This document shows, piece by piece, positions 4,273 to 58,889 of a stretch of DNA of 64,000 nucleotides. The stretch is taken from the UHGV virus genome UHGV-1493261. One strand, 5' to 3'. The notes beneath the pieces were generated by a model that saw only the letters and a list, made by a program, of their open reading frames with translations, did not search any database and was not told the DNA's origin. Within the stretch, counting starts at the first letter, position 1; every line of letters starts with the position of its first letter. The translations under genes and the position numbers were made by a program. The stretch comes from a virus.

Positions 4273-4941
4273 ATGCAAGAGATCACTCTCTCCGAACGTA
4301 CACTTCAGTTGCTGGCCAACTTTGAGACCATCAACCCATCTATCGTTCTGACACCGGGCAAGATGCTGCGCAGTATTAATGATTCTTCTACTGTGATCGC
4401 CGTGGCGCAGATCGAAGAAGACTTCCCGTTTGAGTTCCCGATTCTGGACCTGACCAAACTTCTGGCCATCCAGCGCCTACCTTCCTTCAAAGGTGCCAAA
4501 GCCGAATTTCATCAGGACTACATCCTGTTGAAAGGTGAAAGCTCTCAACTGCAGTTCTGGCGCTCCGCCAAAGAACTGACTGTGGTCCCGGCCGACACCA
4601 TCGAACTGCCTTCCGTCGACTTTGAAGCGATCATCACTCCAGAGAAGATGAAAGAACTGACCCGCGCCTGTTCTACCCTCGGACACAAGACTGTGCGCCT
4701 GGTTGCTCAGGGTGGCAAAACACGCCTGGTTGCAACCACCACTACCCTAGACAACTCCAACAACTACACTGTTGAGCTGGGCGAAACCGCACTGCCGGAC
4801 TTCGTAATGCCGCTGGATGTTGCCAACCTGAAAATGATCGAAGGCAACTACACTCTGCGTGCATGTGCTGATCTACAGATGGTGAACTTCCAATCATCCG
4901 ACGCGACGATCAATTACTTCGTCGGCGCACAGATTGAGTAA
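4273..4941 (+). CDS. gp45: sliding clamp (gp45-like)
   Basis: 222 aa, GAGGA RBS. N-terminus LSERTLQLLANFETINPSIVL parallels T4 gp45 LSKDTTALLKNFATINSGIML. Immediately followed by the clamp loader genes. Confidence 0.75.
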   Translation: MQEITLSERTLQLLANFETINPSIVLTPGKMLRSINDSSTVIAVAQIEEDFPFEFPILDLTKLLAIQRLPSFKGAKAEFHQDYILLKGESSQLQFWRSAKELTVVPADTIELPSVDFEAIITPEKMKELTRACSTLGHKTVRLVAQGGKTRLVATTTTLDNSNNYTVELGETALPDFVMPLDVANLKMIEGNYTLRACADLQMVNFQSSDATINYFVGAQIE

Positions 4942-4961
4942 TCAATCTCCAGCCTGATGCT

Positions 4962-5000
4962 ATAATGTGTGGGCGGGGCGTTCCCCGCCTATTTGAAATG
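4962..5000 (+). promoter_or_regulatory. TATAAT / GC hairpin / ATTTGAAAT cassette upstream of gp44
   Basis: TGcTATAAT (4962-4967), hairpin GGGCGGGGCGTTCCCCGCC (4972-4990), TATTTGAAAT (4991-5000), then GAGG RBS and ATG 5022. Confidence 0.5.
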
Positions 5001-5021
5001 ATTCTTCTACACGAGGCTGAA

Positions 5022-7821: not shown

Positions 7822-7843
7822 GATATACAGTTATTCACTAAAC

Positions 7844-7876
7844 AACAGAGGCTATAATGGCCTCTGTTTTCTTATT
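7844..7876 (+). terminator. rho-independent terminator with TATAATG loop
   Basis: ACAGAGGC / loop TATAATG / GCCTCTGT followed by TTTCTTATTCT, after the stop at 7821. Confidence 0.6.
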
Positions 7877-7889
7877 CTGTGAGGATACC

Positions 7890-10075: not shown

Positions 10076-10138
10076 AGATTCCCTTTACTTCGTTCTTCAA
10101 TAACTCAATCCAGCGTATATTGACCTCACTTAAACGAA

Positions 10139-10178
10139 GCGCCCTGGCAAACGGGGCGCACATTTGAACTGAAACAGG
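10139..10178 (+). promoter_or_regulatory. GC hairpin / ATTTGAA cassette
   Basis: Hairpin GCGCCC-loop-GGGCGC (10139-10159) then ACATTTGAACTGAAAC and GGAAGATTACATCATG 10190. Confidence 0.4.
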
Positions 10179-10189
10179 AAGATTACATC

Positions 10190-12208
10190 ATGTCAGATTT
10201 TAAGTCCTTCGCAGTAGCTGTCAACAATAACGTGCTGGCCATGTCAGCAACTGGTCTGTTCATGACCAACATCGATAAAGATGCTCTGTGGGATCTGTAT
10301 CTGTCTTCTTTCCCTGCTGGCACTAACCCGCTTTATCGTGAGCGTACCGAGCACGACTGCACCTGCTGTAAACAATTCATCCGTAACATTGGCGGTGTGG
10401 TCACCATCGACTCCGACCTGAACGTGATCTCTATCTGGGATAACATTCAGCTGGGTAACGAATACGACGTTGTCTCTGCGGCGCTGTCAGCGTATGTTAA
10501 GCAGCACGCAATCGTCGACGTGTACTTCAACGACACCAAGAAAGTTGGTGTTGAGTCGAATCACGAAATGAAAGACGGTATTGTCCGCACCTACAACCAC
10601 TTCCACACCGACCTGCTGGGTAGCTATGTTCTGCGGGCAGATACCATCGCTTCTAAGAAGGGTGAAATCCGCCAGGCGATTGAAGTGTTTGAGCGCGGCC
10701 TGCGCGAACTGTCTCTGGAATCGGCTGAAATCGTCCTGGAACTGATCGATCAGAATTCTCTGTATCGCGGTGAAGAGCACAAAGCGGCAGTGCAGGCGTT
10801 CGTGGTGAACAAGACCATGTACGAACAAACTGCAGAAGAGAAACGCGCTCTGTGGGCTTGGCGCACTGGCTACCGTGCAAACGGTCATACCCCTCACGGC
10901 ATTCGTAATACCGTGATTGGCTCTCTGCTGGTAGACCTCAATGAAGGCCGGGATCTGGAAACCGCCGTGAAGTCCTTTGAAGCCAAAGTCGCTCCGACGA
11001 ACTACAAGCGCCCGACTGCGCTGGTGACAAAGTCGATGATCGAAAACGCGCAGAAAGAAGTCGAAGCGCTGGGTCTGACTGATTCGCTGGGTCGCCGTTA
11101 TGCCGTGTATGACGATCTGACCATCAACAACGTTCTGTTCGCCGATCTGGCAGCGCAGAAGAAGATGGACCCGTTTGCTCAACTGGCGTCTGAAGTGAAG
11201 ACTCCGACCAAGTCCCTGGATAAGGTTGAAGAGATCACCATCGACGACTTCCTGGCCAACGTGTTGCCAAAGGCGCATTCCATGGAAGTGCTGGTTGAGA
11301 ACTCTCACATTGGCAACCTGATGTCTCTGATCGCTCCGGCGAACCCAGATGCACCTAACCTGTTCAAGTGGAACAACGGCTTCAGCTGGTCATACAACGG
11401 TGAAGTGGCAGACTCCATCAAAGAGCGCGTGAAGACCGCTGGTGGCAACGTTGACAGCTTCCTCCGTGTGTCACTGGCTTGGCATAACAACGACGACCTG
11501 GATCTGAGCCTGAACGATCCTCTTCACAACCACGTGTACTTCCGCAACCGTCGTTCGTCAACAGGTGCAACCCTGGACATCGATATGAACGGTATGGATG
11601 GCATTGACCCAAATCGCCGTCCGGTGGAGAACATCTTCTTCAGCGATGAACGCAAGCTACGTGACGGGAATTATGAGTTCTATGTCACCAACTACAACAA
11701 GCGTGAAACCTGTGACGTTGGCTTCGAAATCGAAGTCGAATACAAAGGCCAGACCAAGCGCTTCTCACATCCTGGTCTGGGTAACAAAGATCGCACGTTG
11801 GCTGTTGTGGTTCAGGTTCGCGCTGGTCAGGTAGTAGACATCCGTTCCACCCTGAAAGACGACGAACGCTCTCAGGAAATCTGGGGTATCAAGACTGCTA
11901 CCTTCCAGAAAGTACAGCTGGTCCTGAATTCACCAAACCATTGGGACGGCGAGCAGACGGGCAACAAGCACGTGTTCTTCATCCTGGAAGGTTGCGCCAA
12001 CCCTGTGGGCACCCGTGGCTTCTACAACGAATATCTGAAGCCGGAACTGGATAAACACCGCAAGGTTTTTGAAATGTTAGGTGGTAAGATTAAAGTACAG
12101 CCAAGCACTGAGCAGCTGTCCGGTCTGGGCTTCTCTACCACCCAACGCAACCACGTGTTCGTGAAGGTGAGCGGCTCGTTCAACCGCACTGTGAAAGTTG
12201 TGTTCTAA
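10190..12208 (+). CDS. hypothetical protein (672 aa)
   Basis: Long ORF with strong initiation context GGAAGATTACATCATG and upstream GC hairpin plus ATTTGAA element. No GHKL motifs, so not rIIA-like. Function unknown. Confidence 0.7.
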   Translation: MSDFKSFAVAVNNNVLAMSATGLFMTNIDKDALWDLYLSSFPAGTNPLYRERTEHDCTCCKQFIRNIGGVVTIDSDLNVISIWDNIQLGNEYDVVSAALSAYVKQHAIVDVYFNDTKKVGVESNHEMKDGIVRTYNHFHTDLLGSYVLRADTIASKKGEIRQAIEVFERGLRELSLESAEIVLELIDQNSLYRGEEHKAAVQAFVVNKTMYEQTAEEKRALWAWRTGYRANGHTPHGIRNTVIGSLLVDLNEGRDLETAVKSFEAKVAPTNYKRPTALVTKSMIENAQKEVEALGLTDSLGRRYAVYDDLTINNVLFADLAAQKKMDPFAQLASEVKTPTKSLDKVEEITIDDFLANVLPKAHSMEVLVENSHIGNLMSLIAPANPDAPNLFKWNNGFSWSYNGEVADSIKERVKTAGGNVDSFLRVSLAWHNNDDLDLSLNDPLHNHVYFRNRRSSTGATLDIDMNGMDGIDPNRRPVENIFFSDERKLRDGNYEFYVTNYNKRETCDVGFEIEVEYKGQTKRFSHPGLGNKDRTLAVVVQVRAGQVVDIRSTLKDDERSQEIWGIKTATFQKVQLVLNSPNHWDGEQTGNKHVFFILEGCANPVGTRGFYNEYLKPELDKHRKVFEMLGGKIKVQPSTEQLSGLGFSTTQRNHVFVKVSGSFNRTVKVVF

Positions 12209-13940: not shown

Positions 13941-13974
13941 GCTCTGAATAATATTTCAACCTGTCAATAATATA

Positions 13975-14010
13975 ATGCCCGGTTATATTCAATCGGGCAT
14001 TTTTATTATA
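13975..14010 (+). terminator. rho-independent terminator
   Basis: ATGCCCG / 12-nt loop / CGGGCAT then TTTTATTAT. Preceded by TATAAT at 13971-13976. Confidence 0.55.
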
Positions 14011-14090
14011 TTAATTGGCATCAATACCGCCTGTCGTAATATAATAGTCCCATGTTGAAATAGTTGGGAAATATAACTCACGAGAGCCTG

Positions 14091-14267
14091 ATGACCGACA
14101 ACAAATTAAAACGCGCCGGACTTGATTGTCTTGACAATTCATTCCGCCCCAGTGATGTTCTGGTCGCCCAAATGGAAAACAACCGGGATTTCATTGAAAC
14201 TATGCTGGAGAACGCCGACGCGAACTCCAAACACTCCAAAGCCCAAAAAGGTCAAAACGATGATTGA
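14091..14267 (+). CDS. small hypothetical protein (58 aa)
   Basis: ATG 14091 after GAGAG; charged helical peptide; stop overlaps the start of the vWA gene by 8 nt. Below the 60-aa cut-off from this start. Confidence 0.3.
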   Translation: MTDNKLKRAGLDCLDNSFRPSDVLVAQMENNRDFIETMLENADANSKHSKAQKGQNDD

Positions 14268-16461
14268 GTCATTAACATTTAAGAATGCGGTTGCGACCGT
14301 CGCGCCGTCTAACCATGTAATCGTTGTGGATATCTCCGGTTCCATGTATCGTTCACTTCCAGAAGTCCGTAAGCATCTGAAGGAGAACCTGCCTTCCCTG
14401 GTGAAACCCGAAGATACTGTGAGCATCCTTTACTTTTCATCTCGCGGTGATTTCGGAACGGTATTTGCCGGACGTCAGATCGGTGTCGCATCTGACCTGA
14501 GCGAGCTGAATAAGCTGATCGACCGTTTCCTGCAACCATCCGGCTGTACTGGTTTTGTTGAGCCATTGAAACTGGCGATGGATACTGCGCGCGGCCTGAA
14601 GAAACCCGGCTACGTCAACAACCTGGCATTCATGACCGATGGTTATGACAACTGCTGGCGCTCCAATGAAATCCTGGATACCGCCGAAAAACTTCCTTCC
14701 GCGTTCGACAACGTTACATTCATCGAATACGGCTGGCACTGTAACCGTGAACTGCTGGCGCAGATGGCCGAACGCTCTGGTGCAACCCACGTTTTCGCCG
14801 AAGGTCAGACTGAATATCAGACCGAGCTGGAAAACGTGCTGAAGTCATCAGTGCCGAAGGTGAAAGTTGATGTCCCAGTCATCTACACCCATGCCATCTA
14901 CGTCGAAAACGGTGTGGCAACAGTACTGGCGGTGCAGGACGATGACGCTCACCCGGTCGGTTATGTGAGCATCCCTGAGAGCGTCACCAAGCTGTGGGTT
15001 GTAAACCCTAACATGATCGACCAGATGGATAGCCTGACGGACATCCAGGCGGCATACGTGCTGGCGTTCTACGGCGTACACACTATGGACGCAGATCTGG
15101 TTTGGGCTGCGCTGAAGAAGACGGGCGACGTTCGCTTCATCAAACAGTACAGCAACTGCTTCACCAAGCAGGACTACTCCAACATCAAGAACGATCTGAC
15201 CCAGGCCATCGTTGATGACCAGCTGCGCGGCGTTGACGGTATTGACTATGACCTGGTTCCAGCTGAAGATGCGACCACCGTCGTTGATGTGCTGACGTAC
15301 CTGGCTGAAGCTGGTGTGCCTGTTGCTACCAAGCATCCGATGTTCTCCTATAAGAGTATCGGGCGCGGTACGGTTCAGAAAACCGACGACACCGAAGACA
15401 AGCTGGCAGAACAGATCGCGAATGCTCAGTCCAAAGAAGAGCGTAAAGCCCTGGCTCTCAAGCTGGCAGAACACGAAGAGTGGAACCCGACGTTCGAACC
15501 TACCAACGACCTGGGTGTTGTGCCAATCAGCGATTTGGTCTATAATTCCGAACGCCCGAACATCAGTGTGCGTACAATTCAACACGGTACTGTGGCTGTG
15601 CCTGAATTCGCACAGAAGAAGTTTGGCCTGCCTGAAGAACTGGATACTTTCCAGTGGCGCAACTACACCATCGTCAAAGATGGTATCATCAACGTGAAGA
15701 CCCTGCCGTTCAAGGCTGATATCGAAGTTGTACAGAAGCTGATCGAAATGGGCGTCCACGTGTTTGGTGGTCCGGAAGTGTTCATCTTGAACCTGGAAAG
15801 CGTACCGCTGGTCAACCGCGCCATGGTCAAGAACATCAGTGCTGCTCAGTTCTTTGCGGATAATGTCCGTCTGGAAGCCCTGAAAGGCAAGCAGAAGGTG
15901 CTGAAGTTCTATCGAGACGCCCTGGTTGGTAAGGGTAACGCCAAAGGCCTGGCAGTACAGTACGGCGCTGAGGCGGCCGAGTTCCTGTCCTCCTATGGCA
16001 TCCGCGATTACGGCTTCTCACCGAAGACTGAGACCAAAGAGTCTACCGACTTCTACATGAGCCGTGAGCTGAACGTGAAGATCGCTGGCGCTTCTTCTCT
16101 ACCGTCTATCGCAGCGGTACAGAAGAAGATAGCCGAGAACAAGAAACTCAATGCTGGTGACTTGTTCATCGCCAATGCGCTGAAGGAGTACGAAGCATTC
16201 GTGAAGTCTCCTATGATCACTGCCGTGCCTGAAGCCTTACAGAAACATCTGATCGAAAACTGGATCGACGCTGCTGCCAAGGCGGCCATCACCGAAGTCC
16301 GTGCTCTGAACAAGACGCTGTCTAAAGTGGTGTATGGTATCGTTGCTGGTCATGGCTGGTTCACCGACCTCGACCTGGAAGAGTCCACCATGGAAGTTGA
16401 AGTGGATGGGGTGAAGTACAAGGTCACTGCCGAACTGGCAGAGAAAGAAATCAAAATCTAA
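14260..16461 (+). CDS. vWA-domain protein (MIDAS motif), 733 aa
   Basis: Start at ATG 14260 (AAAGG RBS) inside track ORF 14122. N-terminal VIVVDISGSM...ILYFSSRGD...FMTDG fits a von Willebrand A fold with DxSxS MIDAS. About 500 aa C-terminal unassigned. Confidence 0.7.
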   Translation: MIESLTFKNAVATVAPSNHVIVVDISGSMYRSLPEVRKHLKENLPSLVKPEDTVSILYFSSRGDFGTVFAGRQIGVASDLSELNKLIDRFLQPSGCTGFVEPLKLAMDTARGLKKPGYVNNLAFMTDGYDNCWRSNEILDTAEKLPSAFDNVTFIEYGWHCNRELLAQMAERSGATHVFAEGQTEYQTELENVLKSSVPKVKVDVPVIYTHAIYVENGVATVLAVQDDDAHPVGYVSIPESVTKLWVVNPNMIDQMDSLTDIQAAYVLAFYGVHTMDADLVWAALKKTGDVRFIKQYSNCFTKQDYSNIKNDLTQAIVDDQLRGVDGIDYDLVPAEDATTVVDVLTYLAEAGVPVATKHPMFSYKSIGRGTVQKTDDTEDKLAEQIANAQSKEERKALALKLAEHEEWNPTFEPTNDLGVVPISDLVYNSERPNISVRTIQHGTVAVPEFAQKKFGLPEELDTFQWRNYTIVKDGIINVKTLPFKADIEVVQKLIEMGVHVFGGPEVFILNLESVPLVNRAMVKNISAAQFFADNVRLEALKGKQKVLKFYRDALVGKGNAKGLAVQYGAEAAEFLSSYGIRDYGFSPKTETKESTDFYMSRELNVKIAGASSLPSIAAVQKKIAENKKLNAGDLFIANALKEYEAFVKSPMITAVPEALQKHLIENWIDAAAKAAITEVRALNKTLSKVVYGIVAGHGWFTDLDLEESTMEVEVDGVKYKVTAELAEKEIKI

Positions 16462-16465
16462 TCCA

Positions 16466-16493
16466 ACGGGCGGGTTGCCCCGCCTTTCTTTGG
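16466..16493 (+). terminator. GC hairpin with T-tract between vWA and ACP-like genes
   Basis: GGGCGGG / TTG / CCCCGCC then TTTCTTTGGG. Same hairpin family as the cassettes at 4972 and 17206. Confidence 0.45.
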
Positions 16494-16503
16494 GAGAAGT
16501 AGC

Positions 16504-16830
16504 ATGAGCAGTAAACCAACATATGTTGAAGTCATGCGTCATCTGGCTCAGTACGCCACTGACAATTTGAACTTAGATGCAGATGAGGTGAAATACCCAG
16601 ACGTCAAGAAAATGATTGACGGCGAAGTTGTCATAGACGATGCGTTGGACAAGTTTGCAGGCCTCCGCACCAAGAAAGATCTGGGTGGTGACGAACTCGA
16701 TACCATCGAAATCGTGATGGACCTGGAAGAAGAGTTCAACGTCGAAATCGACGACGGTTGGCTAGGTAGTAAAGGCGATGACCCGACCATGGGTGAACTC
16801 GCTGAACTCGTGGTTGCCCTGCGCAAATAA
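16504..16830 (+). CDS. acyl-carrier-protein-like protein lacking the phosphopantetheine serine
   Basis: DLGGDELDTIEIVMDLEEEFNVEID aligns with E. coli ACP [25 protein letters not shown] but has DELD in place of DSLD. GGGAGA RBS. Terminator at 16837-16866. Confidence 0.6.
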   Translation: MSSKPTYVEVMRHLAQYATDNLNLDADEVKYPDVKKMIDGEVVIDDALDKFAGLRTKKDLGGDELDTIEIVMDLEEEFNVEIDDGWLGSKGDDPTMGELAELVVALRK

Positions 16831-16836
16831 CAGAAG

Positions 16837-16866
16837 TCCCCAACAAACGTTGGGGATTTTTACTTT
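16837..16866 (+). terminator. rho-independent terminator
   Basis: TCCCCAAC / AAAC / GTTGGGGA then TTTTTACTTTT, after the ACP-like gene. Confidence 0.65.
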
Positions 16867-16872
16867 TAGGGG

Positions 16873-16902
16873 GTTTACTTCCTCTAAGGAATGTCCTATT
16901 AT
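16873..16902 (+). promoter_or_regulatory. sigma70/T4-early-like promoter (GTTTAC-N18-TATTAT)
   Basis: GTTTAC at 16873-16878, TATTAT at 16897-16902, upstream of gene 16954. Confidence 0.45.
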
Positions 16903-16953
16903 TCAATAACTGGCGAACGATGGGTTCACCGGGTTGAAAGGTAAGATTATATC

Positions 16954-17193
16954 ATGAAGAACAAAATGGTCGAAACTTCAGTAGAGATTGATCGCAATTG
17001 GGGATTGCTCCGCGCTAAAGGGTTCCGTCGTGTGTATGCGACCAAAGAAGTCTACGCACAGCGCCGTGACGTTATCATCAGCAAGAAAGGCAAAGAGTGG
17101 GTTGCTGAAGAAGTTGATGTCGAGACAGGCATCGTAGGAAAGGTAAAGGCCAAGGCCGTGATCCTCTTCGCTCTTCTGAAGCACATCAGTTAA
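16954..17193 (+). CDS. small basic hypothetical protein
   Basis: 79 aa. Initiation context AAGATTATATCATG. Upstream GTTTAC-N18-TATTAT promoter-like element. Confidence 0.5.
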   Translation: MKNKMVETSVEIDRNWGLLRAKGFRRVYATKEVYAQRRDVIISKKGKEWVAEEVDVETGIVGKVKAKAVILFALLKHIS

Positions 17194-17196
17194 TTC

Positions 17197-17240
17197 TATA
17201 ACTTTGGGCGGGGTATGATTACCCCGTCTATTTGAAATGC
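17197..17240 (+). promoter_or_regulatory. TATAAC / GC hairpin / ATTTGAAAT cassette
   Basis: TATAAC (17197-17202), hairpin GGGCGGGGTATGATTACCCCGTC (17206-17228), TATTTGAAATG (17229-17239), then AGGAACTATACCATG. Confidence 0.5.
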
Positions 17241-17252
17241 AGGAACTATACC

Positions 17253-17759
17253 ATGACCGATCAACAAATTCAAGATTTATTTTACCTCGTCCATGATAAG
17301 TCCCACATCATGCGCCCCGGTACTGTTTCCCCTGCCGTCCGTGATCTGGTGCAAGAATTGCGCGAACCACAGACGACCACACTTTATCGCGGGTTGCCTA
17401 AAGAGGACGTTGCGCGTTTAGAGATGATGTTTGAACGAGGCGACATGTTCCAGACATGGGATTCTTGCCTTAGCTTCAGTGAACTGAAGCATGTGGCCAA
17501 AAAATTTTCTAAATCGTACGGAACCCAAGCTGTTGCCCGCATTTGTTACAAACATCGAAACAGACTCCCGGAGGGGCTTAATGTCTATGGTTCTCTAGAA
17601 AAATTTGTGAACAAAGGCGATGAATCAGAAATGGATATGCTGGACTTGGCGTCCATGGAGAAAGAATGGATATTCTGCCAGCCTCGCGTCATACCAGTTT
17701 CAAGAAAAATGGCAACAGACGGGACGATGGTTTTTACCGTATCACTTGTTACTCTATAA
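17253..17759 (+). CDS. hypothetical protein
   Basis: Start at ATG 17253 with context AGGAACTATACCATG. Track start 17232 is a TTG inside the ATTTGAAAT element. 168 aa. Confidence 0.55.
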   Translation: MTDQQIQDLFYLVHDKSHIMRPGTVSPAVRDLVQELREPQTTTLYRGLPKEDVARLEMMFERGDMFQTWDSCLSFSELKHVAKKFSKSYGTQAVARICYKHRNRLPEGLNVYGSLEKFVNKGDESEMDMLDLASMEKEWIFCQPRVIPVSRKMATDGTMVFTVSLVTL

Positions 17760-17760
17760 C
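17732..17760 (+). promoter_or_regulatory. promoter-like element (TTTTAC-N17-TATAAC)
   Basis: TTTTAC 17732-17737 and TATAAC 17755-17760 with 17-nt spacer, inside the 3' end of gene 17253..17759, 5 nt before hairpin 17765-17786. Confidence 0.4.
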
Positions 17761-17764
17761 CCAC

Positions 17765-17796
17765 GGCGGGGTATGATTACCCCGCCCATTTGAAAC
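17765..17796 (+). promoter_or_regulatory. GC hairpin / ATTTGAAAC cassette
   Basis: Hairpin GGCGGGGTATGATTACCCCGCC (17765-17786) and CATTTGAAAC (17787-17796), then GAGACTATATCATG. Confidence 0.5.
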
Positions 17797-17810
17797 CAAG
17801 AGACTATATC

Positions 17811-18185
17811 ATGAAAAAGTTAATCCTCGCTGTTGCCCTGCTGGGCGCTTCCTTTGCTGCTGTTTCCGCTCCTCCTGTCATTACCGGGGTGTCTACCAAC
17901 GGTGTTTATGCTTTCAAGGCGTATGGTCAAGACCTCGTTCTGTATAAGAACGGGAAGATGATTGAGCGCTGCGTATCAGAAGACGTGAATCGTGGGATCG
18001 ACAATCAGGGTAGCCCATACGTCCTGGACATCTATGCCTGCTCCAACGGGACGAAGTCCTTTGGTGTCAAGACCTTTGGCAACGTCGCCGTCGGCGGCTG
18101 GGGCTTCATGATCGAAACCCGCAACCACCAACCGGTCAAGACCATGCAAGAAGAGTTCTTGATCTCTGTCGGGGGTACGTTATGA
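17811..18185 (+). CDS. exported small protein (signal peptide)
   Basis: Start at ATG 17811 (GAGACTATATCATG). MKKLILAVALLGASFAAVSA then PPV: typical Sec signal peptide with AxA site. Two Cys in mature part. Confidence 0.55.
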   Translation: MKKLILAVALLGASFAAVSAPPVITGVSTNGVYAFKAYGQDLVLYKNGKMIERCVSEDVNRGIDNQGSPYVLDIYACSNGTKSFGVKTFGNVAVGGWGFMIETRNHQPVKTMQEEFLISVGGTL

Positions 18186-18469
18186 CACCATCAGAGAGAA
18201 GTTCTATCAAGGAGATGATCAGAGACAAGGCGTGTGTTGGCCATACTCAGTCAGAGAACATCTTGCGCCTGATGGTAATAAAGAACGATATCGATAACAG
18301 CCGATTCCAAACAGCGTTGTATGGCATGCTGGAGTTTATATCGCGGTCATCTGATCTTGGCACGGTCCGATATCTTGATGATCTAACCAAGCTGTTGAAC
18401 ACGGGCGGGGAAACTTTCGACACCGCTCGTATCCTGATTGACGGTGGACCTGAAGAAGACGAGGTATAA
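18182..18469 (+). CDS. hypothetical protein
   Basis: 95 aa. ATGA start/stop overlap with the upstream gene. Confidence 0.45.
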   Translation: MTPSERSSIKEMIRDKACVGHTQSENILRLMVIKNDIDNSRFQTALYGMLEFISRSSDLGTVRYLDDLTKLLNTGGETFDTARILIDGGPEEDEV

Positions 18470-18470
18470 T

Positions 18471-18629
18471 TTGGATAAAGAATTGGTTTGGGAAATTGTG
18501 AAGGGTGTCCTAGTGATAATTGCGGTGGTTTTCATCTTGGGTGGGAACTTCTTCTATTGGTTATTCCGATCCGACCAGAAACGTCGCGAACGCAAGGAGA
18601 AAGAGAGAAAGGATCGATGGATGCGCTAA
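18471..18629 (+). CDS. small single-pass membrane protein (TTG start, tentative)
   Basis: In-frame TTG 18471 is 8 nt after GACGAGG. Peptide VWEIVKGVLVIIAVVFILGGNFFYWLF followed by a basic tail. Under 60 aa from this start. Confidence 0.3.
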   Translation: MDKELVWEIVKGVLVIIAVVFILGGNFFYWLFRSDQKRRERKEKERKDRWMR

Positions 18630-18661
18630 CTAAGGGATAACCCTATATCCCGAGGTGTGTC

Positions 18662-19111
18662 ATGTTCCTTACATCCTTTATTGACTGGTTGAACATCATT
18701 AACGGCCTGAGGATCCCTGTTGGGAACCTCGGGCTTTCTCGTTCTTCTATGCCGCAAATCGATGCCGACAAACAAGAAGATTTTCACAAATATCTTGAAG
18801 ACAACGGCGTGTCCATAGATGCTGCGCAAGTGCCCATCAAAATGCTTCGTCTTACCCAGAACGAAATCAACAAGATGAAGGTCTGGAAGATTATGAAGCA
18901 GATCAGAAATAAGAAACCTATGGGTCGAGTTTGGGTGTCTTCTGACAATTACGTTGTTGACGGTTCTCACCGATTTGTCGCTGCGTTGAACATGGACGGC
19001 AAACAGCGCATGAAGGTCTACAAAGTTGATTTACCAGCGATGGAATTTGTTAAACTCGCTAAACAGTTTCAGGGTGTGCGATACAGAACGGTCAGCGATA
19101 CCCGTTTCTGA
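18662..19111 (+). CDS. ParB/Srx-like nuclease domain protein
   Basis: VPIKMLRLTQ ... YVVDGSHRFVAALN matches the ParB N-terminal domain (DGxHR) signature. GAGGTG RBS. Confidence 0.5.
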   Translation: MFLTSFIDWLNIINGLRIPVGNLGLSRSSMPQIDADKQEDFHKYLEDNGVSIDAAQVPIKMLRLTQNEINKMKVWKIMKQIRNKKPMGRVWVSSDNYVVDGSHRFVAALNMDGKQRMKVYKVDLPAMEFVKLAKQFQGVRYRTVSDTRF

Positions 19112-19190
19112 ATACGATAGTTTATTGAATCCCTTTACTCATCATGGTGAGCCGCCTATCATTTCATCCAATGAAATAAGGAGAATCACC

Positions 19191-19877
19191 ATGAAACGTT
19201 TAATCCTCGGGGTTGTGCTGGCTGGTCTGGCATTACCCGCCGCTGCCAAGCTGAACTCCACAGGTGATAAACTGTGGTCCGACCTTTCCTATTGTGCTGG
19301 GTTCTCCCAGGCGGTTGCTATCGACAAGTCTGGTTCCATAGAGAACTTCGCTGAACTCTGGAACACAGGCAACGTCTCCACCGCTGTCATCAATGCCGGA
19401 ATTGAGTTCAACCGTTACAAACAGGGAGCCTATAACCTCAAGGGCTACCTCAATGACGACGAATTTAACCGTGGAGGCATGGAGGCTGGCGATTTGATCA
19501 TGACTGGGCGTATGGGCACCCAAGGCCGAATGACCGTAAGACAGTGCCGTTCGCTCCCTTCTCCGGCATTACAGAAGGGTGTGCAGATAGGCCGCCGTCA
19601 CCTGAACCTCATCAACGATGGCAACCAGTGCATCAAAGTATTCGAATACAGCGCTACGCAGACCTCTGATCGCGTCCTGAAGAAGGAATGGCGCACTCGC
19701 GCTCTCGGTCTCAGAGCCTGGCTGGTTGAGAACGATTATTACTTTGAAGACAGGGTTCAGAACGGTCTGAAAGACCTGGCCACGAATCTGAGCGTGAACC
19801 TTGATGATCCTCGCATGTCGCGCGAACTCCAGCAGACTCGTGTTGACTGCGACAATATGATGAAGGAGAACGAGTGA
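19191..19877 (+). CDS. exported protein (signal peptide)
   Basis: Start at ATG 19191 (AAGGAG RBS) inside track ORF 19026. MKRLILGVVLAGLALPAAA then KL signal peptide. Confidence 0.55.
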   Translation: MKRLILGVVLAGLALPAAAKLNSTGDKLWSDLSYCAGFSQAVAIDKSGSIENFAELWNTGNVSTAVINAGIEFNRYKQGAYNLKGYLNDDEFNRGGMEAGDLIMTGRMGTQGRMTVRQCRSLPSPALQKGVQIGRRHLNLINDGNQCIKVFEYSATQTSDRVLKKEWRTRALGLRAWLVENDYYFEDRVQNGLKDLATNLSVNLDDPRMSRELQQTRVDCDNMMKENE

Positions 19878-20203
19878 TGAAATGTAAAATCCTGCTCTTG
19901 TTGGTACTGATAGCCGGGTGTGTAAACGCCGCGCCACCGTCCAAACTGAACACATGTGTGGCATGGATGGAGACGTATCAGCAGTTCCACCCAGATGACA
20001 AAGATACATCTATCCTCTTGTCTGACTTCGAGGGAGAGCTGAAGCGCCTTGATCTGTTCAGTGTTGATCAGATAGAGAATGCGCTGGATCTTCCCATGAT
20101 GCTGACTGCGGCTGACAACAGTTCACAAACGAAGAAAGACCTGATGTATTGCCGGGGGATTGCCCAGGACTTTGTCGGATTTCAAAATAAAGTTTCGGGT
20201 TAA
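19877..20203 (+). CDS. lipoprotein (lipobox LIAGC)
   Basis: ATG 19877 overlaps the upstream stop (TGATG), AAGGAG RBS. MKCKILLLLVLIAGC: signal peptide ending in a lipobox cysteine. Confidence 0.55.
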   Translation: MKCKILLLLVLIAGCVNAAPPSKLNTCVAWMETYQQFHPDDKDTSILLSDFEGELKRLDLFSVDQIENALDLPMMLTAADNSSQTKKDLMYCRGIAQDFVGFQNKVSG

Positions 20204-20243
20204 AATTTTAGCTCTACATTGTGAACTGAAGGAATACACTGTG

Positions 20244-21110
20244 ATGCTCCTGACCAAAACAATCGCTGCAGCGATTATCGAAAAGAATAAGGCTTTTGCC
20301 CCCAACGCAGCCAAAGTTATGTTGGTACACGAAGACGCTCGCGTGATCTTCGCCGAGAAGTTCGAGATGGGCGCGAAGTTCTGGTATGCCGACAACTTAC
20401 GTGAGAGCAAACTTCAGGGTATCATCCACAAACTGACTCTGGTCGCCAAGCGTAATGACCAGGGTGACTGGGTCGGCGTTTCTGACTTCAGTACGAAGAT
20501 CACCCCAAAGGCTCCACTTTCTCGTCAAGAGCGCATTCTGGAAGCCCAGGAAAAGCTGCGTGCGGCTCGGAGTACCCCAAAGGCGAAACCAGATGCAAGC
20601 CCTGTCATCAAGCCAGCGGTTGTTCCTAAGTCCAAATACCTCCCGCCCGTGAGTCAAAAGGCTGTGGAGCAATTGGTTGAGAAGCGCAAGGGTGACGTTG
20701 TGATGAAGTCTGACTCTTCAGTGGAGCCGTTCAAGCCGGATCCAGCAGAAGTACAGGCGCTGGCAGAAAAGGTAAAGAATTCACAATTCATTTCCCTGCG
20801 TGAACTTGAACCGCCTACTCGCCGTCGTATCGCCAACGAGCTGTTTGTGTCGTTCAGGTCGGATGGCAAGATCGTCCTGTGCAAAGCCCTGCGCGATGCA
20901 ATCCCTTGGACAACTCTGAACATGATGGTCACTCGCGACTTCAAGCGTTTTGGTATCATGCAAGGCAAGGACTACAACGTGAACCAGAGTGGGACTTATG
21001 TTAATCGCGCCATGTGTGACAAACTGACCTTCCCAGAAGATACTGGAACGATCCGTGTCGTTCTGAATTGGGACGACAAGCTGAACATGTATGTTGGCGA
21101 TTTCCAATAA
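20244..21110 (+). CDS. hypothetical protein
   Basis: Start at ATG 20244 (AAGGAA RBS) inside track ORF 20160. 288 aa, Pro/Lys-rich linker in the middle. Confidence 0.5.
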   Translation: MLLTKTIAAAIIEKNKAFAPNAAKVMLVHEDARVIFAEKFEMGAKFWYADNLRESKLQGIIHKLTLVAKRNDQGDWVGVSDFSTKITPKAPLSRQERILEAQEKLRAARSTPKAKPDASPVIKPAVVPKSKYLPPVSQKAVEQLVEKRKGDVVMKSDSSVEPFKPDPAEVQALAEKVKNSQFISLRELEPPTRRRIANELFVSFRSDGKIVLCKALRDAIPWTTLNMMVTRDFKRFGIMQGKDYNVNQSGTYVNRAMCDKLTFPEDTGTIRVVLNWDDKLNMYVGDFQ

Positions 21111-21121
21111 TCAATAACCTC

Positions 21122-21160
21122 GGGCGGCTTATCATAAAGCTGCCCTTTCATTTGAGTGAC
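21122..21160 (+). promoter_or_regulatory. GC hairpin / ATTTGAG cassette
   Basis: Hairpin GGGCGGCTTATCATAAAGCTGCCC (21122-21145) and TTCATTTGAGTG, then ACTATATCATG 21167. Confidence 0.4.
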
Positions 21161-21166
21161 TATATC

Positions 21167-21829
21167 ATGGAAAAACTTTATTCTATTATCGTCGGTCCTG
21201 ATCCTGACGGATTATTCTTCGCCCCGTTGTCTTATATTGCCCACGCCCGTATCGGCAGCCATTACGCATATTGCACACGTGGCCACGACGGTTCCAATAT
21301 CCTCCATTATAGCCGCCTGAACGATTTCCTGGCACTTCAACCAGAAGATGTTGTGCTGGCGCGTCGCGTGTTCATCGACTTCAACGCTATGCACAACAAC
21401 GAAATTGACGCTCGCTATCATGCCATGCGTTCTATGGAAGGGGGAGACTGCATTTATCGTATCGACCATTTTAGTGAGTTTACCCAATCTATTGATTGGT
21501 TCGTTTCAGAAAAGACGTTGGGTGAAAGAATCGTCACAACTCCGTGGGCACATGCGGAACAACTTCGTGTGTCTACCGATGCGTACAAAGAAGTCGACAA
21601 TCTGTGCAACAAGTTCCGCATCTCTGTGACCTGTAATCAAGACCCGGGCGAAGAGATACAATGGACAGCCGAGTCTCCTCATTTCAGTGGCCTGGTGATG
21701 ACGGCCGAAACCCGTTCCCGTGCTGTTGTCCAGTTAGTACTCTGGGCGTTCTACCAGCGCACCCCGTTCTCATACATGGGACAGAAAGAGATTGATGAAC
21801 TCCTGAAGTCTCACGCGGTGGAGGTGTGA
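21167..21829 (+). CDS. hypothetical protein
   Basis: Start at ATG 21167 with context GACTATATCATG, preceded by a GC hairpin and ATTTGAG element. 220 aa. Confidence 0.5.
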   Translation: MEKLYSIIVGPDPDGLFFAPLSYIAHARIGSHYAYCTRGHDGSNILHYSRLNDFLALQPEDVVLARRVFIDFNAMHNNEIDARYHAMRSMEGGDCIYRIDHFSEFTQSIDWFVSEKTLGERIVTTPWAHAEQLRVSTDAYKEVDNLCNKFRISVTCNQDPGEEIQWTAESPHFSGLVMTAETRSRAVVQLVLWAFYQRTPFSYMGQKEIDELLKSHAVEV

Positions 21830-21830
21830 T

Positions 21831-32451: not shown

Positions 32452-32478
32452 AAGGGGCTTTCGCCCCTTTACTTCTTC
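32452..32478 (+). terminator. rho-independent terminator
   Basis: AAGGGGC / TTTC / GCCCCTT then TACTTCTTC. Confidence 0.6.
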
Positions 32479-32544
32479 AATATCCTTCCCTATACTTCAT
32501 TCCATAAGCAGTACGACACCAACTTGAAAAGCAGGAACTATATC

Positions 32545-32862
32545 ATGACACAACTCAAGAACTTCACAGCCGATGACATGTTTGCCTTCCAGGGTGCTGA
32601 GCACTTTGCTGACGGCTCCGTACCTCGCATCTACTACTTCTCCGACGAAGAGATGGAAGCGTTCTTCGACCTGATGGAAAAGGACTACGAACCAGGCGAC
32701 TTCGTTTATATCATCCATCACGCTGAAGGACTGACCTTGGGTTGGACGGCCAACAACGAACCAGAAGAAGTAAACTTCCCTGAAGGTATCATGTCAGAGC
32801 GCGTCGAATATCTACTGGAAGCCCTGGACCCCACACCCTCCCGCTCTGGGCGATGTCTGTAG
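32545..32862 (+). CDS. hypothetical acidic protein
   Basis: Start at ATG 32545 with context AGGAACTATATCATG. 5' leader homologous to that of gene 46262. Confidence 0.5.
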   Translation: MTQLKNFTADDMFAFQGAEHFADGSVPRIYYFSDEEMEAFFDLMEKDYEPGDFVYIIHHAEGLTLGWTANNEPEEVNFPEGIMSERVEYLLEALDPTPSRSGRCL

Positions 32863-36061: not shown

Positions 36062-36093
36062 ATCCCCCTAAATACAGGGGGATTTCTTTTTCT
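36062..36093 (+). terminator. rho-independent terminator
   Basis: ATCCCCC / loop / GGGGGAT then TTCTTTTTCTG, between stop 36031 and ATG 36106. Confidence 0.6.
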
Positions 36094-39133: not shown

Positions 39134-39166
39134 CTTTACTATTCAATAATAGCGCACTATTATAAT
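39134..39166 (+). promoter_or_regulatory. sigma70/T4-early-like promoter (CTTTAC-N18-TATTATAAT) with A/T-rich UP region
   Basis: AAAATATTTTAAAAAATTATTGAAAAG then CTTTAC (39134-39139) and TATTATAAT (39158-39166), followed by GC hairpin 39175-39191. Confidence 0.5.
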
Positions 39167-39235
39167 TCACATAGGGCGGTAACACACCGCCGAATGAAAG
39201 TGAAACGCACCAACTACATTATGAGGAATTACATC

Positions 39236-39724
39236 ATGGCTACTACCAAAACTCTGATCACCAACGGCACCATCTCTTTCGAACTGAACACCGAAGTTGC
39301 TAAAGTTGAAATGTTCCGCATAGCTCAGGCAGCTGGCTTCACTGGTGGCAAAACTTCCTTCATGAACCTACTGAACGGTAAAGTGAAAGCGACTAACGGC
39401 TTCACCCTGGTAGAGCAGGTTGTGGTTGATAAAGCTGTGGTTGCTAAGACTGCCGACAAAGTTGGTATGCTGAAAAGCCTGGGCCACGACATCCGCATTG
39501 TCGAAGCAAACACCGAAACTTACGGCACCATCGTAGTCGGTAAAGGTCGCATCCAGCTGAACCCGCTGAACAACGGTTCCTTCTCTGTGATGGTCTTCCC
39601 TAAGAAGGGCTACGACAACACCGACATCGTGAAAGCTGCTGGTGGCGAAGCAAAAGCTCAGTACGTCAAAATGGGTAAACTGAGCGCCGACGCAGTTGAA
39701 GCTCTGGTGAGCAAACTGGCGTAA
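39236..39724 (+). CDS. hypothetical protein with strong expression signals
   Basis: Start at ATG 39236 with context GAGGAATTACATCATG. Upstream CTTTAC-N18-TATTAT promoter, A/T-rich UP region and GC hairpin. 162 aa, Ala/Gly/Val/Lys-rich. Confidence 0.55.
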   Translation: MATTKTLITNGTISFELNTEVAKVEMFRIAQAAGFTGGKTSFMNLLNGKVKATNGFTLVEQVVVDKAVVAKTADKVGMLKSLGHDIRIVEANTETYGTIVVGKGRIQLNPLNNGSFSVMVFPKKGYDNTDIVKAAGGEAKAQYVKMGKLSADAVEALVSKLA

Positions 39725-42382: not shown

Positions 42383-42465
42383 GTAACTCGCCAACCCTCC
42401 CCGCCGCCTTCAATCTACGAGGGCGGCGTATAATAAAACCTGCGTAAACAAACCCGAGGAACACC

Positions 42466-46162: not shown

Positions 46163-46190
46163 AAAGCCCCTCATTGAGGGGCTTTACTTC
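46163..46190 (+). terminator. rho-independent terminator
   Basis: AGCCCCTC / ATT / GAGGGGCT then TTACTTC, after nrdC. TATAAT at 46191-46196 follows. Confidence 0.6.
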
Positions 46191-46261
46191 TATAATCCCT
46201 GCGCTTATACTTCCCAGTAATTCATTGGCATTCGCCACAAATTGAAAGCGGGAACTATATC

Positions 46262-46723
46262 ATGACAAACAAAGTACTCACCAACCCACTGCACAACTTC
46301 GGTTACATTCAACTCCCTCTGGTGATCGACACCCTGTACGCCGACGACAAAGAAGAGATCTGCTGGTCACCCACCGCACTGATTGAACGCGAAATCTTCA
46401 AGTCTGTTGTTGATGTCATGTTCCGTATCGGTCGCAATGGACCTCTGGTCTACCTCGGCAAGGTGACTGAGTTGAAGACAAGCCACAACGAACGCTTCCT
46501 TCGTATCGATACAACGGGGTGCTCTCAGCAGGACTTCAACACACTACGTAACTATGTACTGATCAACCGTCCGGTCAGCCAGCACCGCCCGTACCTGACG
46601 TCAATGCACATCGACAATTTCATCACCGACGTGCACCTCCGCGCCGAAACCCTTCATGAAGAGGAAACAGGCCGAGCTATCGACACAGTCTTAAATATGG
46701 TTGTGATCACCCTGGCGGAGTAG
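46262..46723 (+). CDS. hypothetical protein
   Basis: 153 aa. Initiation context GGGAACTATATCATG. Confidence 0.5.
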   Translation: MTNKVLTNPLHNFGYIQLPLVIDTLYADDKEEICWSPTALIEREIFKSVVDVMFRIGRNGPLVYLGKVTELKTSHNERFLRIDTTGCSQQDFNTLRNYVLINRPVSQHRPYLTSMHIDNFITDVHLRAETLHEEETGRAIDTVLNMVVITLAE

Positions 46724-53172: not shown

Positions 53173-53271
53173 TTCAATGTAAAATCGGGGTATAATTACC
53201 CCGCTTTGTAGTAAACTGAAAATACATGCAACAGAATAGCCCTGAGGGGCGGAAATAGAGGAAATTAAGAA

Positions 53272-58154: not shown

Positions 58155-58185
58155 ATTTAAGTTCAGAAACTGTTCAATAGATGAA

Positions 58186-58217
58186 GGGCTGCTATAATAG
58201 CAGCTCCTTTTGTTTTA
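58186..58217 (+). terminator. rho-independent terminator with ATAAT loop
   Basis: GGGCTGCT / ATAAT / AGCAGCTC then CTTTTGTTTTAT. TATAAT spans the stem-loop junction. Confidence 0.55.
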
Positions 58218-58229
58218 TCGGAGCAGTTT

Positions 58230-58889
58230 ATGTCCTACTCCCTGAAGGGGCTGATGAAGCGCCCCGTCCACACATTCTTTAAACCACCCGTCGTAAAGGG
58301 GATCTACCCAGCACGAGGGCAAATCTACTACGTCAAAGGCTCCAATGGTAGCGGTAAATCCACTGTGCCGTCTCAGCTGGCGGAGAGGGATCCTCAGGCG
58401 TATGTCGTGACCCATAACGGCAAGGTAATGCTGACTGTCTGTCCTTCGTTCAACGTGGTCTGTATCGGTAAATATGACAAGTCGAAGTCCAAGGGGGTTG
58501 ATTCCCTGAAGGACACTGAGCAGATGTTGTTCGCGTTGTCTATTGCTGACCAACCAGAATACTTGAAATATGATGTGATTTTCGAAGGTATCATTCCATC
58601 CACATTATTGAGTTCTTGGATCCCCCGTCTGACACGCCCACCACGTGAATTGGTTGTGCTCTTTATGGACACTCCTCTTGAAACGTGTATCACCCGCGTT
58701 AAATCACGTAACGGCGGTGTGGACTTCAATGAAAGTCTGGTGGTCGAGAAGTGGGAGAGAGTTCATGACCATCGTCAACGACATAAAGACTTGTTCCCTA
58801 CGGTGGCTGCGGGTATGATGAAGTCTCACGGCCTAACAGTAGACCAGGCTGTGATGGCATTCCTCTGTCGTGATTTTGGGAGTATCTGA
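58230..58889 (+). CDS. P-loop NTPase / putative kinase
   Basis: Walker A GSNGSGKST; hydrophobic strand then EG (VIFEG). Immediately upstream of and overlapping the TS-fold gene. Confidence 0.55.
   Translation: MSYSLKGLMKRPVHTFFKPPVVKGIYPARGQIYYVKGSNGSGKSTVPSQLAERDPQAYVVTHNGKVMLTVCPSFNVVCIGKYDKSKSKGVDSLKDTEQMLFALSIADQPEYLKYDVIFEGIIPSTLLSSWIPRLTRPPRELVVLFMDTPLETCITRVKSRNGGVDFNESLVVEKWERVHDHRQRHKDLFPTVAAGMMKSHGLTVDQAVMAFLCRDFGSI

Follow-up and report, generated by a model that had tools for sequence, protein, structure and literature searches.

Intergenic cassettes combining a GC-rich hairpin, a candidate promoter motif and a conserved leader in an Agtrevirus-like Ackermannviridae phage

Promoter-early stem-loops (PeSLs) have been described in RB49/phi1, T4/PST, and KVP40/nt-1 (Arbiol 2010, PMC2839356; Comeau 2014, PMC4122927). 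For the ViI-like phages, the CBA120 paper reported that early and middle promoters were not identifiable and that these phages have no MotA, AsiA, Alt, or ModA (PMC3184105), and the words promoter, transcription, terminator, and regulatory are all absent from a 2024 review of the family (PMC11721090). A conserved motif, TTCAAT[N14]TATAAT, is quoted in another source as a marker of the genus "Viunalikevirus" (PMC7283392), and is the same motif at the same kind of sites as those considered here. Terminator activity and mini-circle formation were shown experimentally in RB49, whereas the subject of this analysis, a set of intergenic cassettes that recur in a 64,000-nucleotide (nt) stretch of the virus genome UHGV-1493261 (the whole stretch is hereafter referred to as the window), is known from sequence alone.

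We consider it likely that these are PeSL-like cassettes of terminator, promoter, and ribosome site, which would insulate genes from one another and mediate gene exchange. The promoter motif is enriched upstream of genes, its geometry relative to the hairpins is fixed, boxes, stems, and leader are conserved across genera, and genes have been replaced at the cassettes. Only the way in which the modules are combined, and the tie of this combination to gene shuffling, appear to be new; the promoter motif itself had already been listed as a genus marker. The first-pass annotation of the window, made from the letters alone, had described one arrangement (a TATAAY element, a hairpin, a box, and an initiation context) in front of at least eight genes. 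The modules do recur, but the full combination of hairpin, ATTTGAAA, and ACTATAyCATG is found only at 17194-17255 and 17752-17813, here referred to as cassettes A and B (the focal cassettes). The pattern is a mosaic of separable recurring modules, of which the other sites carry subsets, not one fixed cassette.

A candidate -30 box and -10 hexamer upstream of genes

The window comes from an Agtrevirus-like Ackermannviridae (ViI-like) phage. A megablast of positions 16000-22000 matched 275 phage records, all of them large enterobacterial myoviruses, with the Escherichia phages vB_EcoM-ZQ1 (96.9%) and AV101 (96.5%; Ackermannviridae, Aglimvirinae) as top matches. G+C content is about 49% throughout, and the + strand carries nearly all genes, whose names (gp45, gp44, gp62, RegA, gp55, gp46/47, primase, nrdAB, and others) were taken from the AV101 annotation; gene calls in the window are heuristic, the kinase gene, for example, truly starting at about 7890 and not at 7857. 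The complete AV101 genome, put together from four loci, was used to compare upstream regions with the genome, and syntenic 50-kb stretches from three other genera, represented by Vi01 (Kuttervirus), FKP10 (Taipeivirus), and Kamild (Limestonevirus; a Dickeya phage), were set beside the window as a cross-genus set. A protein-based IMG/VR search for the neighbours of orf168, the gene between cassettes A and B, returned only three loci, and a DNA-pattern scan and the syntenic stretches were used instead. Rfam searched at gathering thresholds over the whole window gave no matches.

Scanning for TTCAAT-N13-15-TAnnnT with up to two mismatches, we found 14 intergenic + strand sites in the window, and the stricter pattern WTCWAT-N14-TATNAT matched seven times, always on the + strand, against 0.11 +/- 0.35 expected. 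The resulting family-specific motif is TTCAAT(AAy)-N13-15-TAnnAT, with a box centred at about -30 (about -32 to -27) that is weakly extended to TTCAATAAy. Upstream of genes it occurs in sense orientation at 1.7-2.4 copies per kb, whereas coding sequence has 0.05-0.16 per kb (Fisher 2e-6 to 2e-16 in the window, Vi01, FKP10, Kamild, and whole AV101); in the four genera the upstream density is 15-25 times higher, and sense copies outnumber antisense copies about threefold. An unbiased k-mer count in AV101, upstream regions versus genome, returned five groups, namely CTAAATA(C), TTCAATAA, ACTATATC/GGAACTAT, TATAAT/TATAAC/TATACTTC, and GGCGGGG; all five copies of GGAACTAT and 6 of the 10 copies of ACTATATC fall within the 8% of sequence that lies upstream of genes. 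The first-pass annotation had made its proposal depend, among other things, on the motif being more frequent upstream of genes than inside coding sequence in a complete genome, and in AV101 it is.

Like middle promoters, these sites have a TAnnnT -10 without a canonical -35, while the MotA box (a/t)3TGCTT(t/c)A is missing at -30, where TTCAAT(AA) resembles it in position alone. The Viunalikevirus motif, taken as intergenic and in sense to the next gene, is found at these sites, in cassette A with one mismatch per hexamer. The canonical sigma-70 pattern is not enriched (25 sites versus 20.2 expected), which led us to reject a promoter of the usual host type for the focal cassettes. Some copies of the motif stand without any terminator (36460 and 14020), and one before a gp32-like gene, at 53173-53203, lies outside the N13-15 scan, so the motif tolerates a wider range of spacings than was assumed. 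A box at about -30 with N14 is too near the -10 for normal sigma-70 contact at -35, and a putative phage factor therefore probably reads it; the box points to a factor that would redirect the host polymerase.

In AV101, TTCAAT stands before the rIIA, gp44, nrdA, ligase, uvsY, and hmdU-kinase genes, TTTACT before small open reading frames (ORFs) without known function, and CTAAATA before structural genes. Most likely, the TTCAAT class consists of middle-type, factor-dependent promoters, a temporal class that we infer. The family's late-type motif, CTAAATAC(C), is located 30-50 nt upstream of AV101 structural genes; the window has copies at 2003-2010, before uvsW (2035), and at 36068-36075, before gene 36106, the latter inside the loop of a CCCCC/GGGGG hairpin.

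Hairpin registers, leader module, and gene replacement

Folding around each upstream-sense motif placed the hairpins of the window in a few discrete registers relative to the -10. In class a, the loop holds the box and the stem extends as far as -1 (nrdA, 42402-42434). In class b, the -10 lies in the loop, with the 5' arm at -9 to +1 and the 3' arm ending at +14 to +16 (7853, 13984, 17214, 17772, 21130, and 58193, and with N12 also 53191). In class c, the stem begins 2-8 nt after the -10 (gp44 at 4961; 39161), and in class d the hairpin is located further down the leader (10139). In a search made for class b, 45 unique cassettes turned up, coming from no fewer than 13 loci whose stems are unrelated to one another. 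When stems of 7 bp or more are counted, a TAnnnT is present in the loop of 17 of 103 upstream-sense hairpins, versus 4 of 114 antisense and 31 of 721 coding ones, and 8 of the 17 also have the box (up to one mismatch). The averaged profile, G-rich before the -10, C-rich after it, and T-rich from +15 to +18, is that of a terminator wrapped around the -10.

Across the genera, boxes, stems, and ribosome site are kept, while spacers, loops, and the downstream gene change. Upstream of gene 10190, for example, TTCAAT and TATATT are constant in all four genera and the 14-15 nt spacer between them is different in each; in the leader of the same gene the stem is kept, the loop varies, and ACATTTGAACTGAAACAGGAAGAyTAyATCATG is constant. 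The loop hexamer at 21130 reads TATCAT, TATTAT, TATAAT, and TATCAT in the four genera, within stems that differ and that contain G-U pairs in Kamild.

The start regions align as TTGAA(A/C)-N2-5-(A/G)GGA-ACTATATC-ATG, often followed by AC, before 5-11 genes per 50-64 kb in each genus, and AGGA or GAGA stands 8 nt before the ATG in all module genes. The start context ACTATATCATG, which had been called conserved from the letters alone, occurs in exactly four copies, each at a + strand gene start (17803, 21159, 32537, and 46254); with up to two mismatches it matches 28 times versus 14.7 +/- 3.8 expected, a count reached by none of 100 shuffles, with near-matches at further starts. The ATTTGAAA box was rejected as a stand-alone motif (12 matches versus 6.3 expected, reached in 6 of 100 shuffles). 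TTGAA-N2-5-AGGAACTAYAYCATG was found in only 44 stretches among 2.9 million viral contigs, nearly all on contigs of 152-164 kb, and the leader module is therefore specific to the Ackermannviridae family. The leader TTGAA-N-AGGAACTATATCATG(AC) is independent of promoter class and of hairpin, and is used behind T4-early-like promoters too: the leaders at 32522 and 46240 sit behind a GGGGC-loop-GCCCC hairpin directly followed by TTTACT-N17-TATACT, a unit that is intergenic only. We read the leader module as a predicted standard translation initiation region.

Possibly, the leader also acts as a putative operator for RegA or another RNA-binding protein. That ATTTGAAA ... AGGAACTATATCATG should be chiefly such an operator, through which the RegA homologue (6468-6932) or an endoribonuclease would co-regulate a set of early or middle mRNAs post-transcriptionally, seems to us rather unlikely as a replacement for the cassette explanation, to which it could instead add. 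T4 RegA acts on the initiation regions of a set of early mRNAs, which it represses, and this phage encodes RegA; moreover, ATTTGAAA and ACTATAyCATG are invariant in the 16 cassette A/B variants where neighbouring leader positions vary, and the module, besides being independent of promoter class and hairpin, reaches into coding sequence (ATGAC). However, T4 RegA sites are AU-rich and the leader motif is dissimilar, the homologues of the classical RegA targets in the window (gp45, gp44, and regA) have neither the motif nor the ACTATATCATG context, and gene conversion between cassettes could keep up the conservation of the leader.

Gene 31185-31799 has a Kamild homologue annotated as "endoribonuclease RegB family protein", while the window gene itself is assigned only to phrog_600 (function not assigned), with a weak sub-threshold SLT match. 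Should the window gene encode a RegB-like enzyme, cleavage might spare the cassettes, whose ribosome sites read AGGAAC and not GGAG.

Cassette A has copies in 246 phage records, always after the same 79-codon gene, and is followed by denV (Vi01 and Kamild), orf168 (the window and some Kuttervirus), orf92 (others), or a lipoprotein gene (FKP10). In Vi01, Kamild, and FKP10, orf168 is replaced by denV or absent, and in Kamild GAGACTATATCATG follows denV without a hairpin. The orf168 product has no Pfam match and matches the C-terminal part of phrog_832, "RNA polymerase ADP-ribosylase" (5.8e-15); according to the CBA120 paper, ViI-like phages are without Alt and ModA (PMC3184105). Likewise, the early-type leader of gene 32545 precedes at least six different genes in relatives, the homology ending just after the ATG. 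When the window was compared at the nucleotide level with the other three genera, homology that still covered the leader was lost no more than 15 nt past the ATG for 4 of the 6 module genes versus 3 of 46 other + strand genes (Fisher p = 0.0017), which is how PeSLs have been described to behave.

In the segment 9023-10095, gene 9146-10075 is without a nucleotide-level counterpart in Vi01 and FKP10 and has only a partial one in Kamild. The segment reaches the TTCAAT box at 10096 or stops no more than about 30 nt from it, and is another cassette-bounded replacement. The leader of this gene has a long hairpin over the ribosome site (AACAGGAACT..AGTTCCTGTT-ATG).

Cassettes A and B and the competing readings

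The strings quoted in the first-pass annotation are all present where it had placed them. The fold energies of all nine hairpins lie between -14.6 and -19.7 kcal/mol, and eight of them (-15.8 to -19.7 kcal/mol, z = -2.2 to -4.6, with the ribosome site unpaired) are significant, the ninth, at 16466, being not (z = -0.9). GGCGGGG..CCCCGCC matches twice versus 0 expected. The two hairpins that had been called identical differ, with GGGCGGGGTATGATTACCCCGTC at 17205 and GGCGGGGTATGATTACCCCGCC at 17765. The gp44 site, which had been counted among the fullest examples, is missing the initiation consensus; at 32522 and 46240 there is no adjacent hairpin, and the 16466 site has neither box nor consensus. 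Nor is "TATAAY" one consistent element across the sites.

The idea of a phage-specific promoter and 5'-untranslated module holds in so far as a promoter, a GC-rich hairpin, and a conserved initiation region are combined; what is not supported is TATAAY as the -10 of the focal cassettes. According to that reading, transcription would start from TATAAC (17197 and 17755) within the 5' arm, and the hairpin would be a 5'-terminal stabilising stem-loop of the mRNA. The proposed order of -10, hairpin, and leader does fit the geometry of the gp44 site (4941-5024) and of 39142-39238, where a good TATAAT precedes the hairpin by 2-8 nt (4961 and 39161) and a proper box stands 13-14 nt upstream; the homology of the focal cassettes to the gp44 hairpin plus TATTTGAAAT is plain to see, and Vi01 has TATAAT at this position. 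However, TATAAC lacks the final T that is nearly obligatory in a -10, as do most relatives (mostly TATAAA, or AATAAC in FKP10 and L046, besides TATAAT), and 13-15 nt upstream of it there is no TTCAAT-like box, only TGAAGC within the upstream coding region. In every relative, the same bases fit a wTCwAT box (TTCTAT or ATCAAT) at N13-14 from the loop hexamer, which in the sampled relatives is always TAnnnT (TATGAT, TATTAT, or TATCTT). Because relatives mostly lack the final T and keep the box and the loop TAnnnT, we read TATAAC as the 3' part of the -30 box (TTCTATAAC), with the candidate -10 in the hairpin loop, and regard a -10 at TATAAC as distinctly unlikely. TTGAAA-N8/9-TATATC was also rejected as a promoter, the spacing being far too short and the start site falling within the ORF.

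The first-pass annotation had offered, as an alternative, that the hairpins are terminators. This finds support at the sister hairpins 7844, 13974, 16468, and 21122, which have proper T-tracts (at least 5 T in the 8 nt after the stem) and score as intrinsic terminators, while the two focal hairpins, with the required GC-rich stem of at least 5 bp and short loop, were not called. The cassette A hairpin is proposed to be the terminator for transcripts from gene 16954-17193. Among the 16 cassette A/B variants, 95% of stem cells are paired, and the changes (GC<->GU, UA->UG, and one AU) fit an RNA structure.

A reading in which the hairpins are terminators or 3'-end stabilisers only would go further: motif likenesses would arise from AT-rich flanks and loops, the cassettes would be similar by recent duplication, and the downstream genes would be expressed by read-through. 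The canonical T-tracts just mentioned, the partly compositional enrichment, and the close relatedness of the cassette A/B family (88% mean column identity) all suit this reading. Against it, box and hexamer and the distance between them are kept in four genera whose spacers and loops have diverged, loops with the hexamer favour one strand (17 sense versus 4 antisense), the box accompanies 8 of the 17 where about 1-3% would be expected, the 13 or more loci have unrelated stems in the same register, and the motif occurs without a terminator at 36460 and 14020. We give it marginally less credence still than a -10 at TATAAC. Very improbable indeed is an action on DNA, in which an extruded hairpin or cruciform would present the -10 single-stranded as in the virion-polymerase promoters of phage N4: many loci do have the -10 precisely in the loop of an inverted repeat of 9-11 bp, but the stems vary through G-U (G-T) pairs, as suits RNA rather than DNA, they are followed by T-tracts as RNA terminators are, the same promoter motif occurs in other registers and without a hairpin, and to our knowledge there is no N4-like polymerase in the Ackermannviridae.

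In the PeSL-like cassette that we favour, three modules would act together. The GC-rich RNA hairpin and its T-rich tail (yATTTGA.., TTTCATTTGA, TTTTGTTTT) would terminate or attenuate transcripts arriving from the upstream gene. The candidate promoter TTCAAT(AAy)-N13-15-TAnnAT would be interleaved with the hairpin, its -10 in the loop at the focal cassettes and at 13 or more loci per genome, and would start transcription where the 3' arm ends, about 7 nt downstream of the hexamer. Lacking the 5' arm, RNA made from there could not terminate itself; it would carry an unstructured leader of 25-30 nt with a standard ribosome site. The third module is this predicted leader, TTGAA-N2-5-AGGA-ACTATATC-ATG(AC), a standard initiation region that is common also to the T4-early-like cassettes (hairpin plus TTTACT-N17-TATACT). 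Terminator and promoter would thus fit into about 35 bp and the whole cassette into about 60 bases. The recurrence of one unit of 25-60 nt would make it a homology patch for recombination, with genes swapped at junctions at the ATG.

Several observations weigh against this explanation. Part of the motif enrichment over coding sequence is inflated by intergenic AT-richness. The box of cassette B is poor (CTCTAT, two mismatches to TTCAAT), and the tails of the focal hairpins, TATTTGAA at 17205 and CATTTGAA at 17765, contain only three U (UAUUUG and CAUUUG), so that the terminator scan did not call these hairpins. Covariation in the focal stem was not significant among the 16 variants (69 of 500 shuffles reach it, with one fully compensated pair type). 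TTGAA and ACTATATC are accounted for only as a good ribosome site, and no MotA or AsiA homologue to read the -30 box is reported in ViI-like phages (PMC3184105). Finally, no transcript 5'- or 3'-end maps for Ackermannviridae were found in the literature searched, and promoter and terminator activity are thus predictions.

Only tentatively do we advance a broader version, in which a promoter nested in its own terminator would occur throughout the Ackermannviridae at a dozen or more loci. The -30 box would form a MotA-independent promoter class, the hairpin would insulate the gene and transcription would restart 7 nt later, a putative phage factor would represent a second, independent appropriation of sigma, and cassette plus leader would be a cross-genus swap patch for denV, the ADP-ribosylase-like gene, and others. 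Even the narrower explanation gives a testable transcription map with three promoter classes, a compact terminator/promoter design, and a standard ribosome site, and would explain the cross-genus exchange of accessory genes with junctions exactly at the start codon. Ackermannviridae are widely used in biocontrol and phage therapy, and such cassettes, as natural insulated expression units, could guide their engineering.

Table 1. Components of cassettes A and B and of the other cassettes in the window (candidate elements unless otherwise noted)
Feature	Position	Strand	Details
Cassette A, -30 box TTCTAT(AAC)	17194..17202	+	14 nt upstream of TATGAT; TTCTAT/ATCAAT in relatives at the same distance
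Cassette A, GC-rich hairpin	17205..17230	+	11 bp, two G-U pairs, loop TGAT; -18.8 kcal/mol, z = -3.4
Cassette A, candidate -10 TATGAT in hairpin loop	17214..17219	+	From geometry; TAnnnT kept in sampled relatives
Cassette A, leader ATTTGAAATGCAGGAACTATACCATG	17230..17255	+	ATTTGAAA box, AGGA Shine-Dalgarno, spacer ACTATACC, ATG of orf168; unpaired in minimum free energy fold
orf168	17253..17759	+	Flanked by A and B as direct repeats; found in some relatives and missing from others
Cassette B, degenerate -30 box CTCTAT	17752..17757	+	14 nt upstream of TATGAT; overlaps orf168 stop codon
Cassette B, hairpin GGCGGGGTA-tgat-TACCCCGCC	17765..17786	+	TATGAT (17772-17777) in loop; -19.6 kcal/mol, z = -4.5; exact pattern match
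Cassette B, leader ATTTGAAACCAAGAGACTATATCATG	17788..17813	+	Ends at ATG of lipoprotein-like gene 17811-18185
gp44 cassette, promoter ATCAAT-N14-TATAAT	4941..4966	+	Conserved in Kamild and Vi01
gp44 cassette, hairpin GTGGGCGGGG-cgtt-CCCCGCCTAT	4969..4998	+	2 nt after -10; 3' end overlaps TATTTGAAA; gp44 start 5022; -19.7 kcal/mol, z = -2.2; class c
TTCACT-N13-TATAAT, -10 in loop of canonical terminator	7834..7878	+	Stem 7844-7868, then TTCTTATTCT; z = -4.6
TTCAAT-N14-TATATT with leader hairpin	10096..10192	+	Hairpin 10139-10159, then ACATTTGAACTGAAACAGGAAGATTACATCATG; fold z = -3.9
Three tandem M-type motifs	13963..14045	+	First with TATATT in loop of terminator 13974-14001
Terminator-like hairpin GGGCGGGTTGCCCCGCC + TTTCTTTGGGAG + ATG	16468..16506	+	Plain ribosome site, no box, no ACTATATC; terminator scan match; fold z = -0.9
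Leader module TTGAAAGGTAAGATTATATCATG of gene 16954-17193	16934..16956	+	Early-type promoter TTTACT-N17-TATTAT at 16874-16902
ATCAAT-N14-TATCAT, -10 in loop of terminator	21110..21169	+	Terminator 21122-21145, then TTTCATTTGAGTGACTATATCATG; stems differ among genera
Early-type cassette	32454..32547	+	Hairpin GGGGCtttcGCCCC (32454-32467), TTTACT-N17-TATACT (32468-32496), 25-nt spacer, leader module ACTTGAAAAGCAGGAACTATATCATG (32522-32547)
GTCAAT-N14-TATAAT, then TTTTGCTCATT pairing with AATGAGCAAAA	36460-36526		AATGAGCAAAA at start codon of gene 36517-37128; about -16 kcal/mol
TTCAAT-N13-TATAAT (39142-39166) with hairpin	39142..39238	+	Hairpin 39174-39191; leader ending GGAATTACATCATG
nrdA promoter	42402..42434	+	TTCAAT (42409-42414) in loop/5' arm of hairpin 42402-42428; TATAAT (42429-42434) right after stem; conserved in FKP10 and Kamild
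Second early-type cassette	46166..46264	+	Hairpin 46166-46182, TTTACT-N17-TATACT 46183-46211, leader module AATTGAAAGCGGGAACTATATCATG 46240-46264
TTCAAT-N12-TATAAT, -10 in loop of CGGGGTATAATTACCCCG	53173..53203	+	Before gp32-like single-stranded DNA-binding gene 53272-54288 (AV101 annotation)
TTCAAT-N14-TATAAT, -10 in loop of terminator	58173..58232	+	Terminator 58183-58209, then TTTTGTTTTA, ATG 58230

Three of the other sites call for comment (Table 1). The unit at 7834-7878 is located upstream of a 5-hmdU DNA kinase gene (ATG at about 7890), in an arrangement that is identical in four genera. The gene itself (7890-9086) matches the Pfam 5-hmdU DNA kinase helical domain (PF18723, 1.1e-78), a match that implies thymidine hypermodification by the phage, which could affect the reading of T-rich promoter boxes. 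The region 13332-14260 is an AT-rich spacer, variable between genera, with TTCAAT-type motifs at 13963, 13988, and 14020 and a strong terminator, and could be a promoter cluster or another control region. At 36460-36526, Vi01 and FKP10 carry TTTGCCCATT / AATGGGCAAA, a compensatory change of T>C with A>G; the predicted start lies within the 5' arm, so sequestration of the start codon would be confined to read-through RNA.

Comparison with known systems

The PeSLs and the cassettes described here have the same make-up: short units between genes that join a GC-rich stem-loop terminator to a promoter, a Shine-Dalgarno sequence, and a start codon. Both recur across the non-structural regions and are found at junctions where related phages differ by insertion, deletion, or replacement. 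The two early-type cassettes of the window (32454-32547 and 46166-46264) have the exact PeSL layout, including a sigma-70-like promoter with N17 between -35 and -10 and a stem-loop upstream of it, and their TTTACT-N17-TATACT matches the T4/PST consensus TTTACW-N17-TAYWAT (PMC4122927). Cassettes A and B share with PeSLs the stem-loop next to a candidate promoter, the Shine-Dalgarno sequence and start codon at the 3' end, and the link to replacements. They differ in having a TTCAAT box at N13-15 with no -35 at N17 (TTCTAT or CTCTAT at N14 instead), and in their stem, which overlaps the promoter (-9 to +16) with the -10 in the loop, whereas the PeSL stem-loop lies just upstream of the promoter. 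Beyond the PeSL design, they have an extra, strongly conserved leader (TTGAA..AGGAACTATATCATG), and they belong to a different family, the Ackermannviridae.

The cassettes as a whole are best seen as an Ackermannviridae form of the PeSL/PmSL design. The PmSLs of Vibrio phage nt-1 and the middle promoters of T4, which use MotA and AsiA, resemble the TTCAAT class in combining a TAnnnT -10 with a phage-specific box at about -30 in place of a -35, to which nt-1 adds a stem-loop, and in the replication and nucleotide-metabolism genes downstream (gp44, nrdA, uvsY, ligase, rIIA, and gp32-like). The T4 middle box, (a/t)3TGCTT(t/c)A, differs from TTCAAT(AA), and MotA and AsiA are reported absent from ViI-like phages (PMC3184105). 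The Viunalikevirus marker, as given in the literature searched, comprises perfect copies only, without a relation to hairpins, the -10-in-loop geometry, degenerate copies, a shared leader, or gene exchange (PMC7283392).

The likeness to the T7 gene 10 leader that had been suggested from the letters alone has no specific support: comparison with the epsilon enhancer gave no sequence similarity, a promoter for a phage RNA polymerase is absent, and what the two leaders share (both are short, unstructured, and A/U-rich with a good initiation context) is a generic likeness only. The T4 genes e, soc, 49, and I-TevI have promoters placed within a hairpin, and the structure can form in read-through RNA alone. 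The cassettes share with these genes the logic of a start site inside an inverted repeat, with the hairpin confined to transcripts from upstream, and 36460-36526 is the direct analogue in the window; unlike in those genes, the hairpin of cassettes A and B does not cover the ribosome site and would act as a terminator, not as a translational block.

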